From Trueperaceae bacterium (GTDB taxonomy: Bacteria > Deinococcota > Deinococci > Deinococcales > Trueperaceae): a DNA stretch of 64,000 nucleotides. The notes beneath the pieces were generated by a model that saw only the letters and a list, made by a program, of their open reading frames with translations, made no database searches and was not told the origin of the DNA. Of the stretch, positions 14,677 through 18,372 are shown piece by piece. The stretch's first letter is position 1; each line of letters starts with the position of its first letter. Location: contig JAXHNB010000002.1 in the NCBI GenBank assembly GCA_034520945.1, forward strand, positions 352,001 through 416,000, written 5' to 3'. Made by a program: the position numbers and the translations under genes.

Positions 14677-16672
14677 TCACAGTAGGGCCTTGGCGCGGCG
14701 CACGACCTCGTCGGGTGTGAAGCCGTACTCGGCCAGCACCCGGTCGCCGGGGGCGGAGTGGCCGTAGCGGTCGACGGAGATCACGTCCCCGGCGGGACCG
14801 ACCCACTCGTGCCAGCCCAGGCGGACGGCGGCCTCGACCGCCAGGCGGGCCGGCACGTCCGGCGCCAGCACCTCGCCTTTGTAGGCGTCGTCCTGCGCGC
14901 GGAAGCGTTCCCAGCTCGGCATCGACACCACGCGGGTGGGGATGCCGTCCTCCTCGAGCCGCTCGCGGGCCTCCAGGCAGATCGACACCTCCGAGCCGGT
15001 GGCGAGCAGCAGCAGCCGTGGCGTGCCGCCTGCCGCTTCGGCCTGCACGTAGGCGCCGCGCGCCACGGCGCCGCCGGGCACGCGCAGGTGCGGCACGCCC
15101 TGGCGGGTCAGGATCAGCGCGGTGGGGCCGTCGCGCCGCGCCAGCGCCCGTTGCCACGCCTGCGCCGTCTCGTTCGCGTCGGCGGGGCGGATCACGTCCA
15201 GGTTCGGAATCGCCCGCAGGGCGGCCAGGTGCGCTTCGGGCTGGTGGGTGGGACCGTCGCCGCCCAGGCCGATCGAATCGTGCGTGAACACGTACGTCAC
15301 CGGCCGTTCCATCAACGCTGCGAGGCGCAGGGCGGGCCGCAGGTAGTCGGAGAACACCAGGAAGGTCGCCACGAACGGCCGAACGCCGCCGTGAAGCGAC
15401 AGGCCGTTGGCGATCGCGGCCATGCCGTGTTCGCGCACGCCGAAGTGCACGATGCGTCCCGAGGCGTCGTCGCGGCTCAGCGAGCGCTCGCCGTCGAGGT
15501 CGGTGTGGTTGGAGCCGGCCAGGTCGGCCGACCCGCCGATCAACTCCGGCATGCGGGGCGCGAAGTGGTTCAGTACCGCGTGCGAGGCCTTGCGCGTCGC
15601 GATCGAGCCGCCGGGCTCGAAGGCGGGCAGCGGATCGTCGAACCCGCTGGGCAGCTCACCGGCCATGACGCGGACGAGCTGCGCCGCCTCGTCGGGATGG
15701 GCCTCGCGGTAGCGGGCCCACAGCGTCTCCCACGCCTCGCGCGCCTCGGCGCCCTTCGCCTGCACCTCGCGGCCGTCGGCAGCGACGTCGTCCGGCACCG
15801 TGAACGCCGGCCAGTCGATGTCGAGGGCCCGCTTGGTGGCGGCCACCTCCTCGTCGCCGAGGGCGGCGCCATGGATCTTGGGGGTGCCCGCCAGCTTGGG
15901 GCTGCCGTAGCCGATGGTGGTGCGCACCGCGATCATGCTGGGCCGCTCGTCCTCCGCGATGGCGGCCTCCATCGCCGCCTGCAGCGCGCCGTAGTCGTTC
16001 CCGTCGGAGACGCGCTGGACGTGCCAACCGTACGCCTCGTAGCGCTCCAGCACGTCCTCGCTGAAGGTGATGTCGGTGGGACCGTCGATGCTGATGTGGT
16101 TGTCGTCGTACAGGACCGTGAGCTTGCCGAGGCCGAGGTGGCCCGCCAGCGAGGAGGCCTCCGAGGCGACGCCCTCCATCATGTCGCCATCGGATGCGAT
16201 CACCCAGGTGCGGTGATCGAACAACGGCAGGCTCGGGCCGGTTGTAGCGCGCCGCCAGGTGCGCCTCGGCCAGCGCCATGCCCACGGCGTTGGCGAGGCC
16301 CTGCCCCAAGGGGCCGGTGGTGGTCTCGATGCCGGGCGCCAGGCCGACCTCCGGGTGGCCGGGGGTGCGGCTGCCCCATTGCCGGTAGCCTTTCAGGTCG
16401 TCCATGGACAGGTCGTAGCCGGTGAGGTGCAGAAGGGCGTACTGAAGCATCGAGCCGTGACCGGCGGACTGCACGTAGCGGTCCCGGTTCCACCAGTCGG
16501 GCCGCGCCGGGTCGTGCCGCATCATGTGCCGGTACAGCAGCCACCCCATGGGGGCGGACCCCATCGGCATGCCCGGATGCCCGTCGCCGGACGCCTGGAC
16601 GGCGTCGATGGCGAGGGCACGGATGACGTTGGCGGCGCGCTGGTCGAGGGCGCGGTCGTGAGCTGGGCTCAT
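14677..16672 (-). pseudogene. tkt: Transketolase split by a frameshift near 16231 (pseudogene or assembly error)
   Basis: N-half [19 protein letters not shown]-half [20 protein letters not shown] in another frame. Confidence 0.9.
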
Positions 16673-18067: not shown

Positions 18068-18104
18068 GCAGCCGGAGGGTCGCGCACGTCTTCTTCGGCA
18101 CCAC

Positions 18105-18272
18105 GAGAACACCCCCGGACGCTCGGGTCCGGGGGTGCGGTGCTCCGCCATGGATTGAGGGGCCGCGTGGGCGCCCCATTCCAGGAGGCGGGTCCTAGGC
18201 TACCCTCGGCGGGCACCTCCACTGGTCGTGCGATGCGATTCGCGTATTTGGACCACCTCCTTTCCGTGGTGA
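18105..18272 (-). ncRNA. Candidate intergenic sRNA (about 165 nt) with an extended anti-16S motif
   Basis: TTGCCG-N18-TAGGGT promoter, GAAAGGAGGTGGTCCA, second GGAGGTG, long hairpin and terminator. Confidence 0.5.
18110..18137. terminator. 11-bp hairpin, possibly a bidirectional terminator
   Basis: CACCCCCGGAC-GCTCGG-GTCCGGGGGTG; TTCTC tail on the minus strand. Confidence 0.7.
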
Positions 18273-18372
18273 TGTGACCCTAGCGCACCCGCCCTGGCGG
18301 CGGCAAGGGCCGGGGCCACCTGCCCGGCACGGGCGGCGACGCCCGCCGATATGCTGTGGGTGGAGGTTCGAC

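Follow-up and report, generated by a model that had tools for sequence, protein, structure and literature searches.

Ms_IGR-5 (Rfam family RF02471) entered the lists of actinobacterial small RNAs (sRNAs) in 2013, and its original description reportedly recovered it with heterologous Hfq, to go by the title. The available text of two reports places it among Rfam matches with RNA-seq support in two Streptomyces species (PMC8079986, PMC8780764). Homologues in M. abscessus and M. smegmatis, written MS_IGR-5, are credited in an accessible passage of another report with 'significant ribosomal reads' (PMC4974804). The accessible part of a preprint locates IGR-5 between MSMEG_5794 and MSMEG_5795, NAD-capped at +1A, and calls it a 'validated but yet uncharacterized' M. 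smegmatis sRNA (bioRxiv 10.1101/2021.12.14.472595). In the literature searched, we found no account of an open reading frame (ORF) in Ms_IGR-5, of its spread across phyla or of its function; the supplementary tables of mycobacterial ribosome profiling, which lay outside that search, may list a small ORF (sORF). Here we describe what appears to be a relative of this RNA in a 64,000-nucleotide (nt) stretch of a Trueperaceae bacterium of the Deinococcota (GenBank assembly GCA_034520945.1, contig JAXHNB010000002.1, positions 352,001 to 416,000), hereafter the window. The element is an sRNA gene on the minus strand, and an earlier reading of the sequence alone, made without database searches, had presented it as a candidate decoy for ribosomes.

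At gathering thresholds, Rfam returned no match in the whole window. With permissive filters, RF02471 ('Actinobacteria sRNA') aligned end to end, from model position 1 to 184 and including the terminator, to window positions 18103-18270 with 29.2 bits (E 7.9e-5). Because the curated threshold of 45 bits is not reached, the window sRNA is not a formal Rfam member. We then used a covariance model, R1, which consists of five Deinococcota sequences, namely the window and four homologues picked up by RF02471. In the reciprocal direction, R1 gives two Mycobacterium Ms_IGR-5 loci scores of 49.8 (L062) and 45.3 bits (L100), where Rfam gives 176.5 and 189.5, and it matches 29/31 cross-phylum sources. 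For the sequence-only reading, a hit to an already described Rfam family was to count as a refutation, and such a hit exists in a weakened form: nothing at gathering, but a full-length sub-threshold match together with the reciprocal link. The two RNAs have in common the 5' ACAC/ACCAC start, a Shine-Dalgarno sequence (SD) of the type AAGGAGGUGGUC, a 5' hairpin of two helices (P1/P2), a mini-ORF, an internal GAGGUG, a helix (P3) closing the 3' domain, a terminator, and a stand-alone, single-copy arrangement. The window sRNA differs from Ms_IGR-5 in its Deinococcota host, in its AUH (AUA, AUC or AUU) start where Ms_IGR-5 has AUG, GUG or UUG, in an internal motif one base out of register (SGGA versus REVA), in its P3 sequence (CCGCC/GGCGG versus GCUGC/GCAGC, the replacement seen elsewhere) and in an additional anti-SD-like box. 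Taken together, these comparisons indicate that the window sRNA is a divergent Deinococcota (Trueperaceae-type) relative of Ms_IGR-5.

The locus has the marks of a gene of its own: a conserved -10 box precedes the complement to 16S rRNA described below, and a terminator follows it. The promoter elements proposed in the sequence-only reading, TTGCCG-N18-TAGGGT, stand on the minus strand where it had placed them, with a spacer of 18 nt. The sequence TAnnnT precedes the conserved 5' A(C/T)(C/T)(A/G)C in 61/62 unique sequences, at a distance of 6 nt from the 5' A in 53 of them, whereas TTG at the -35 distance is found in only 6/61 relatives. We infer a 5' end at A18270. At the 3' end, the GC-rich terminator stem ACCCCCGGAC/GTCCGGGGGT occupies positions 18136-18111 of the minus strand; elsewhere the sequence of this helix (ACCCCCGGAC/GUCCGGGGGU) varies and 14/14 pairs covary. 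The terminator had been described as 11 bp long: its existence holds, and the stem measures 10 bp. A consensus promoter and terminator scanner run on the window called neither at the sRNA, in the case of the terminator because the U tract is weak, so that the support for both elements comes from their conservation in relatives and not from the scanner. We conclude that the window locus is, on this comparative evidence, a real, conserved, stand-alone small-RNA gene, as the sequence-only reading had supposed.

That reading had also reported a 16-nt complement of the 16S rRNA 3' end with one G.U pair, GAAAGGAGGTGGTCCA at positions 18264-18249 of the minus strand. The genome's single detected 16S gene ends in ...GGTTGGATCACCTCCTTTCT, and against this end the complement is confirmed and extends to 18 nt (GGAAAGGAGGTGGTCCAA, 18265-18248), still with one G.U; because the genome's own 16S end matches, the 18-nt pairing is real. 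We scanned both strands of the 10 contigs of the 3.47-Mb assembly for uninterrupted Watson-Crick or G.U runs against the last 20 nt of the 16S. The SD of the sRNA is the longest such run in the genome, the antisense of the rRNA gene itself aside, and is followed by three runs of 16 nt. The 11-mer AGGAGGTGRTC is not over-represented in the same genome (14 sites versus 21 for the reversed control). The computed duplex with the 15-nt 16S tail has an energy of -25.6 kcal/mol, versus -11.6 for bare GGAGG. Thus, the sRNA bears the strongest ribosome-binding site of its genome. The SD is positioned in an asymmetric internal loop between P1 and P2, and the 5' strand of P2, UGGUC, also supplies the 3' portion of the complement to 16S. 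In the lineage of L182-L185, P2 is built from other bases and GGUGAUC, with the SD extension UGAUC, is still kept, which shows that the long pairing to 16S is conserved independently of the helix.

Downstream of the SD, the sequence-only reading had found no ATG, GTG or TTG at a suitable distance, which is correct: AUA occupies the start position in the window. The codons in frame are ATA CGC GAA TCG CAT CGC ACG ACC AGT GGA GGT GCC CGC CGA GGG TAG. Among 61 unique Deinococcota sequences, the codon 8 nt after GGAGG (7 nt in three) is ATT in 31, ATC in 17, ATA in 9 and CTG in 4, the last all in the sister family; ATG, GTG and TTG occupy it in 0/61. From this position, 61/61 sequences can be read without interruption to a stop whose location is fixed, as compared with 23/61 and 25/61 for the other two frames; when the variable regions are shuffled, 60% of trials are free of stops. 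The ORF is 12-15 codons long and ends in TAA (43), TAG (16) or TGA (2), with C after the stop in 57/61. It cannot begin upstream, since six of the 61 have an in-frame TAG directly before ATH. Deletions of 1 nt are found solely between the SD and ATH (L043, L045, L181). We also counted changes by parsimony on a quick tree from the element flanks, a short alignment whose numbers are rough: there are 11 length-class changes, all multiples of three (the minimum by class number being 3), one stop codon gives way to another 11 times, and the start codon changes 9 times without ever leaving the set ATT, ATC, ATA and CTG. Other starts were considered and rejected. GTG at 18222 (MEVPAEG...) is without an SD and its frame is open in only 23/61; GTG within the SD is cut off by the in-frame TAG in 6/61; and the codon ahead of ACC-AGT is ATG or GTG in only about half of the relatives and neither in the window. 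AUH/CUG therefore appears to be a lineage-specific replacement of a canonical start. Because this replacement occurs in a frame open in 61/61, a purely untranslated decoy is disfavored, and the comparative data favor the non-canonical micro-ORF that the sequence-only reading had mentioned as its alternative.

The peptide itself is not what has been kept. Across phyla, the same nucleotides GAGGUG(G)C are read as E-V-A (Actinobacteria, Acidobacteria, Nitrospirae, Heliobacteriaceae), G-G-A (Deinococcota, Gaiellaceae) or R-W-L (Planctomycetota). The conserved tail of the ORF lacks third-position relaxation, with GGA GGT invariant at all three positions, and the N-terminal half of the peptide is hypervariable. 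A search of NCBIfam with 13 extended sORF translations returned 0 families. These data suggest that the conserved thing is an RNA motif and a frame, not a peptide.

To the RNA structure we applied an alignment of 31 sequences from several phyla to R1, which is fitted to the model and so biased toward its structure; in it, 90% of cells are in standard pairs, versus 38-50% when partners are slid by 1-3 columns. In a MAFFT alignment that comprised 41 sequences and was not fitted to structure, P1 is likewise 89% paired, and it has the counterparts CACG/CGUG in Actinobacteria and CGCCG/CGGCG in Nitrospirae. P3 consists of helices 3 and 4, GGUG/CACC and CCGCC/GGCGG, which are 93-95% paired, and helix 4 covaries in 4/5 pairs. 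Within the family, P3 shows compensatory changes to CCACC/GGUGG in L020 and to CCGUC/GACGG in L021-L024 and L035. These changes identify the CCGCC inside the ORF (18212-18208) as the partner of the GGCGG arm, and the long hairpin of the sequence-only reading, which had paired this arm with a CCGCC further downstream, has to be given up. The second motif of that reading, GTGGAGGTGCCCG at 18222-18210 of the minus strand, is present; its GGAGGUG is invariant in the family and GAGGUG is conserved across phyla, but it also serves as a strand of the covarying long-range helix. By eye, an AAUCC ahead of the 3' strand of P3 recurs in the actinobacterial members and in those from Heliobacteriaceae, Ignavibacteriales and Zixibacteria, at the equivalent position each time. 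The 3' strand of P3 was also considered as a mimic of the 16S 3' end and rejected, since the two share only CACC.

A competing fold was found in the window RNA. Its minimum-free-energy (MFE) fold (-90.1 kcal/mol, z = -3.4) pairs the SD with the anti-SD-like box GGACCCGCCUCCU (18195-18183), and when the SD is forced open the comparative P3 fold is obtained at -84.2 kcal/mol. In the window RNA, the SD is thus predicted to be largely sequestered by this downstream box, which does not favor the decoy of the sequence-only reading. Across 58 family members, the best SD-to-box duplex has a mean of -17.6 kcal/mol, versus -12.4 for shuffled boxes; CCTCC is present in 36/58 and no such box motif in 13/58. 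By eye, the box was not found in the actinobacterial members inspected. It looks like a lineage-specific addition. The coordinates of all features are collected in Table 1.

Table 1. Features of the small-RNA locus, in positions of the 64,000-nt window.
Feature	Position	Strand	Basis
Whole sRNA, ~170 nt	18101..18271	-	R1 match, 172.5 bits (G000:C2:370101-370271)
-35-like TTGCCG	18301..18306	-	Sequence; weak match, putative
-10 box TAGGGT	18277..18282	-	TAnnnT at matching distance from 5' ACCAC in 61/62 unique Deinococcota homologues
P1 5' strand CCAC	18266..18269	-	Pairs GUGG 18222-18219; 98% paired, 3/4 pairs covary (R1 alignment)
Extended SD GGAAAGGAGGUGGUCCAA, 18 nt complementary to 16S 3' end	18248..18265	-	Comparison with own 16S, genome scan, duplex energy
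P2 5' strand UGGUC	18251..18255	-	Pairs GACCA 18227-18223; overlaps 3' part of SD; 89% paired, mostly G.U-type variation
Mini-ORF, AUA + 14 codons + UAG (I/M-RESHRTTSGGARRG)	18200..18247	-	Frame open in 61/61 unique sequences
Internal SD-like GGAGGUG	18214..18220	-	11 nt upstream of stop codon; invariant in family
P3 5' strand GGUGCCCGCC, last ORF codons	18208..18217	-	Pairs with 18149-18139
Anti-SD-like box GGACCCGCCUCCU, resembles 16S 3' end	18183..18195	-	MFE fold pairs box with SD
AAUCC motif ahead of P3 3' strand	18152..18156	-	Observation by eye
P3 3' strand GGCGGAGCACC, immediately upstream of terminator	18139..18149	-	Covariation with P3 5' strand
Intrinsic terminator hairpin (10 bp, loop CCGAGC) + UGUUCUCGUGG tail	18101..18136	-	Helix 8, compensatory changes in 14/14 pairs

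The conservation of the element was then followed within and beyond its phylum. In the Trueperaceae-type family of the window, R1 identifies one full-length copy in 106/121 genomes, representing 35/36 genera, and in 69/77 of the genomes at least 90% complete; one of the 106 positive genomes (G058) is flagged unpublished, without which the count is 105/120. On a whole-phylum sample, R1 matched 12/12 family members and four credible homologues in three other genera of the sister family, at 46-59 bits. A Truepera radiovictrix metagenome-assembled genome (MAG; L181) carries the same element type. Weak matches in Deinococcus-like and Thermus-like genera (L054-L061), as well as L007 and L008, proved to be coding sequence or bare terminators.

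For other phyla, we scanned one genome per GTDB species with the pattern AAGGAGGTGGTC-N15-45-GAGGTGNCNGC, which gave at least 120 stretches. Among the matches listed, about 102 are from Actinomycetota, including Mycobacterium, Nocardioides, Rhodococcus, Cellulomonas, Tsukamurella, Kineococcus, Gaiellaceae, Acidimicrobiales and Solirubrobacterales. The others listed comprise Planctomycetota/Gemmataceae (4), Acidobacteria classes (4), Nitrospirae (2) and single matches in Heliobacteriaceae, Ignavibacteriales, Zixibacteria, a 'Gammaproteobacteria' MAG contig, one other bacterium and a Truepera MAG. Of the true pattern loci among these matches, 115/118 carry, 7-14 nt downstream of GGAGG, an ATG, GTG or TTG that opens an ORF; its length is 11-18 codons, in most cases 12, its typical peptide is M-x3-(R/W)-T-(R/C)-E-V-A-A-(R/S) and its stops are TAG (102), TAA (9) and TGA (4). 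The three loci without a canonical start comprise one from Acidimicrobiales, where CTG takes its place, and two of the Trueperaceae type, where ATT does. The former (L075, an Acidimicrobiales MAG, 490-564) belongs to the actinobacterial branch and has its CTG 8 nt after GGAGG, like the sister family of the window's clade, suggesting that near-cognate starts arose more than once. When 20 pattern loci were searched against Rfam, RF02471 was the sole family matched: 10 loci are above gathering (46-190 bits), with Zixibacteria at 55.9 bits, 4 are below it (29.5-38.7) and 6 have no match.

Two pattern matches, one in Rhodobacteraceae (L091) and one in a Thermoanaerobaculia repeat (L116), were unrelated on inspection. 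The latter MAG sequence contains, at about 460-600, tandem units of ~45 nt, each starting with ACAAGGAGGTGG followed by CGCCGCTTCGCTCCGGTCGGA, unrelated to the sRNA. The 7-kb contig labelled uncultured Gammaproteobacteria (L167) carries a Mycobacterium-type element (MVDLWTCEVAAS) and may be mis-binned.

A second model of the 5' domain, R2, has 73 positions and is less sensitive in divergent lineages. It gave one match in each of five test genomes and was found in 73/151 sampled genomes of the phylum of the Mycobacterium locus (67/145 without six flagged unpublished). In the Acidobacteriota-centred sample from the phylum of the Blastocatellia locus it matched at least 12/101 genomes and in the Planctomycetota-centred one from that of the Planctomycetia locus at least 2/101, counts that are lower bounds because the model is short. 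The conservation on which the sequence-only reading depended is therefore borne out across the family, the sister family and other phyla, the SD and the internal GAGGUG included. Altogether, the family appears to extend well beyond Actinobacteria and to span several phyla.

The genes around the element are much less constant. In the window, it is flanked by the genes that the sequence-only reading had named, BioY (PF02632) and the Fe-S/CCG-domain oxidoreductase, which are both encoded by the plus strand. Family members usually have the element divergent from the oxidoreductase and often convergent with bioY, whereas the neighbors differ completely in the sister family and other phyla, and the flanking ORFs of 20 cross-phylum loci had no neighbor in common. 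Since the neighbors differ between lineages, the element is not a leader dedicated to any one gene. Between the end of the transcript and the convergent bioY stop there remain 33 nt. The sRNA terminator hairpin lies 44-69 nt past that stop (18067) and may also serve bioY, though its plus-strand side is without a U tract. On the other side, the probable start of the oxidoreductase is GTG 18373, 6 nt after GGAGG (18362-18366) on the plus strand, and not the first GTG of the long ORF (18274). This start leaves a divergent promoter region of about 100 nt common to the oxidoreductase and the sRNA, and the divergent arrangement is seen in most family genomes inspected. Elsewhere in the window, a transketolase frame is broken at 16200-16230 on the minus strand: the N-terminal part runs from 16672, and the rest of the protein, between about 16224 and 14677, is read in a different frame, whether through an indel in the assembly or through a genuine frameshift.

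The explanation that we find somewhat probable as a whole is that this stand-alone, Ms_IGR-5-type RNA (about 170 nt) couples its folding to the translation of its mini-ORF. The 5' hairpin (P1/P2) displays an SD of 12-18 nt in its internal loop. The mini-ORF starts in the hairpin loop and its last four codons form the 5' strand of P3, the other strand of which abuts the terminator. A 30S subunit would bind the exposed SD and the ribosome would translate the mini-ORF; we infer that ribosomes load and translate only weakly in the window. In the Deinococcota clade, initiation is probably infrequent because the AUH start is weak, and it may be sensitive to the control of initiation fidelity. The translating ribosome would melt P1 and P3 and halt at a poor termination context, a stop followed by C. 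At this point, the internal GGAGGU would lie 8-10 nt from the P-site codon of the terminating ribosome, an initiation-like distance. Ribosome occupancy could thereby select the fold of the 3' domain, namely a closed P3 or else a helix between the SD and the anti-SD-like box. The functional event would be the act of translation and not the peptide, and the RNA would read out or buffer ribosome availability. That translation itself may be the signal is suggested by the strong SD, an ORF kept as a frame but not as a peptide, and the exchange of the start for AUH/CUG without loss of the frame.

Several observations weigh against this coupling of fold and translation. The codons AUA, AUC, AUU and CUG are poor initiators, so that translation could be negligible here. 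The MFE fold hides the SD, and the mature RNA could therefore rarely load ribosomes. The frame argument depends on related sequences and on a rough tree from a short alignment, and the ORF tail is without third-position bias, such that RNA constraints would fully explain the sequence conservation. The pairing of a terminating ribosome with the internal GGAGGU is deduced from spacing alone. A mechanism using the anti-SD-like box is lineage-specific at best, because the box is absent in 13/58 members and was not found in the inspected actinobacterial ones. Finally, the Rfam score of the window sRNA lies below the gathering threshold.

Alternatively, the RNA could be the untranslated decoy of the sequence-only reading, in which the start codon has been lost in this clade and the RNA, giving rise to no peptide, titrates either 30S subunits or a factor that binds the SD. 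The longest 16S complement of the genome (18 nt), with a duplex of -25.6 versus -11.6 kcal/mol for the core SD, the canonical start in 0/61 Deinococcota sequences, and the UGAUC kept where P2 uses other bases (L182-L185) would all suit a decoy. However, a decoy's frame, its indels in multiples of three and its stop should have decayed, yet the frame is open in 61/61 with 11 stop-to-stop changes and the start position is limited to near-cognate codons; its SD is predicted to be paired within the RNA, and an sRNA present as a single copy would need extreme abundance to titrate ribosomes. We therefore consider a decoy unlikely: of that proposal, the sRNA gene and the 16S complement stand, whereas the open frame and the paired SD speak against its untranslated part. 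We also regard as improbable a base-pairing sRNA acting in trans, whose G-rich SD-like motifs or AAUCC/CCUCC loops pair with mRNAs or rRNA precursors and whose ORF stabilizes the RNA or is a by-product. The stand-alone gene, terminator, conserved single-stranded motifs and variable neighbors fit this proposal, as does the first recovery of Ms_IGR-5 with heterologous Hfq that the title of its description gives (Li et al., 2013), but it leaves unexplained why frame and stop are retained so exactly and why the ORF ends at the P3 strand in every phylum.

A gene for a functional micropeptide of 12-15 residues would account for the conservation of the ORF behind a strong SD, seen in 7 or more phyla, and for a C-terminal motif kept within lineages (TSGGARRG here, TREVAAR in Actinobacteria). 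It is nevertheless very unlikely given that the same nucleotides are read in three frames between phyla to give unrelated peptides, together with the hypervariable N-terminal half, the missing third-position relaxation and the negative NCBIfam search of the 13 extended translations. Even less credible is a cis-acting element, whether it served as a leader or attenuator, regulated bioY as an antisense RNA, or shared control with the gene of the divergent Fe-S oxidoreductase. Although the family context (divergent from the Fe-S/CCG oxidoreductase, often convergent with bioY) and the attenuator-like succession of ORF and terminator would be compatible with it, there is no read-through target because the downstream gene, bioY, is convergent; the transcript stops 33 nt before the bioY stop, and the neighbors are wholly different in the sister family and other phyla.

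The device known from Actinobacteria is also present in Deinococcota and, to go by record titles, in Acidobacteria, Planctomycetota, Nitrospirae, Heliobacteriaceae, Ignavibacteriales and Zixibacteria. Throughout the family, two features stay constant: the ribosome-binding site is very strong, and the mini-ORF is kept as a frame rather than a peptide. The proposed coupling of fold and mini-ORF translation gives a testable model for a widespread orphan RNA, and the family offers a natural set of near-cognate-start variants for studies of initiation fidelity. A broader and distinctly speculative proposal, which we rate as rather doubtful, is that Ms_IGR-5-type RNAs are ancient, multi-phylum RNAs that sense or park ribosomes on a track of 12-15 codons by means of an extremely strong SD, a sequence-free ORF, an SD-like anchor placed at initiation distance from the last codon and a weak stop, the held ribosome flipping the fold of the 3' domain; in Trueperaceae, AUH and the 16S mimic might turn them into a sensor of IF3 fidelity or of free 30S subunits.

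Several known systems resemble the window sRNA in part. The dual-function (coding) sRNAs SgrS/SgrT, RNAIII/hld and SR1/SR1P encode a conserved, active peptide. Like them, the window sRNA is a small structured RNA with a short ORF, in frame behind a ribosome-binding site (61/61 sequences, and 115/118 true loci among the matches listed). Unlike theirs, its peptide is not conserved and its ORF overlaps conserved helices; the three reading frames across phyla and the lack of third-position relaxation give no sign of selection on the peptide. Leader-peptide attenuators and the trans-acting rnTrpL, as described in the available text on the latter, also combine a short ORF, in which the ribosome position can set the RNA fold, with a terminator, and the liberated small RNA rnTrpL can act in trans (PMC6614838). 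The window sRNA differs from attenuators in having its own promoter and neither a downstream operon nor a regulatory codon run; in place of a downstream gene on the same strand there is the convergent bioY, and elsewhere the context is variable.

In SD-sequestering switches such as thermometers and translational riboswitches, an anti-SD box competes with the ribosome. In the window sRNA, an intramolecular box would likewise compete for the SD, with strong predicted pairing in the window RNA and a stronger family mean than for shuffled boxes, but the sRNA goes with neither a regulated gene nor a known ligand, and not every family member has the box (CCTCC in only 36/58). In prfB, a programmed frameshift site has an internal SD-like sequence before a poorly terminating stop. 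An SD-like sequence a few nt upstream of a poorly terminating stop followed by C is common to both, the spacing to the P-site codon being 8-10 nt in the window sRNA versus 3 in prfB; unlike prfB, the window sRNA has no conserved downstream frame, +1 being open in only 23/61. Finally, infC starts with AUU, and this near-cognate start makes initiation sensitive to IF3 in its autoregulation. The window sRNA precedes neither IF3 nor any long gene, unlike infC; what likens the two, on sequence alone, is a conserved near-cognate AUH start behind a good SD.

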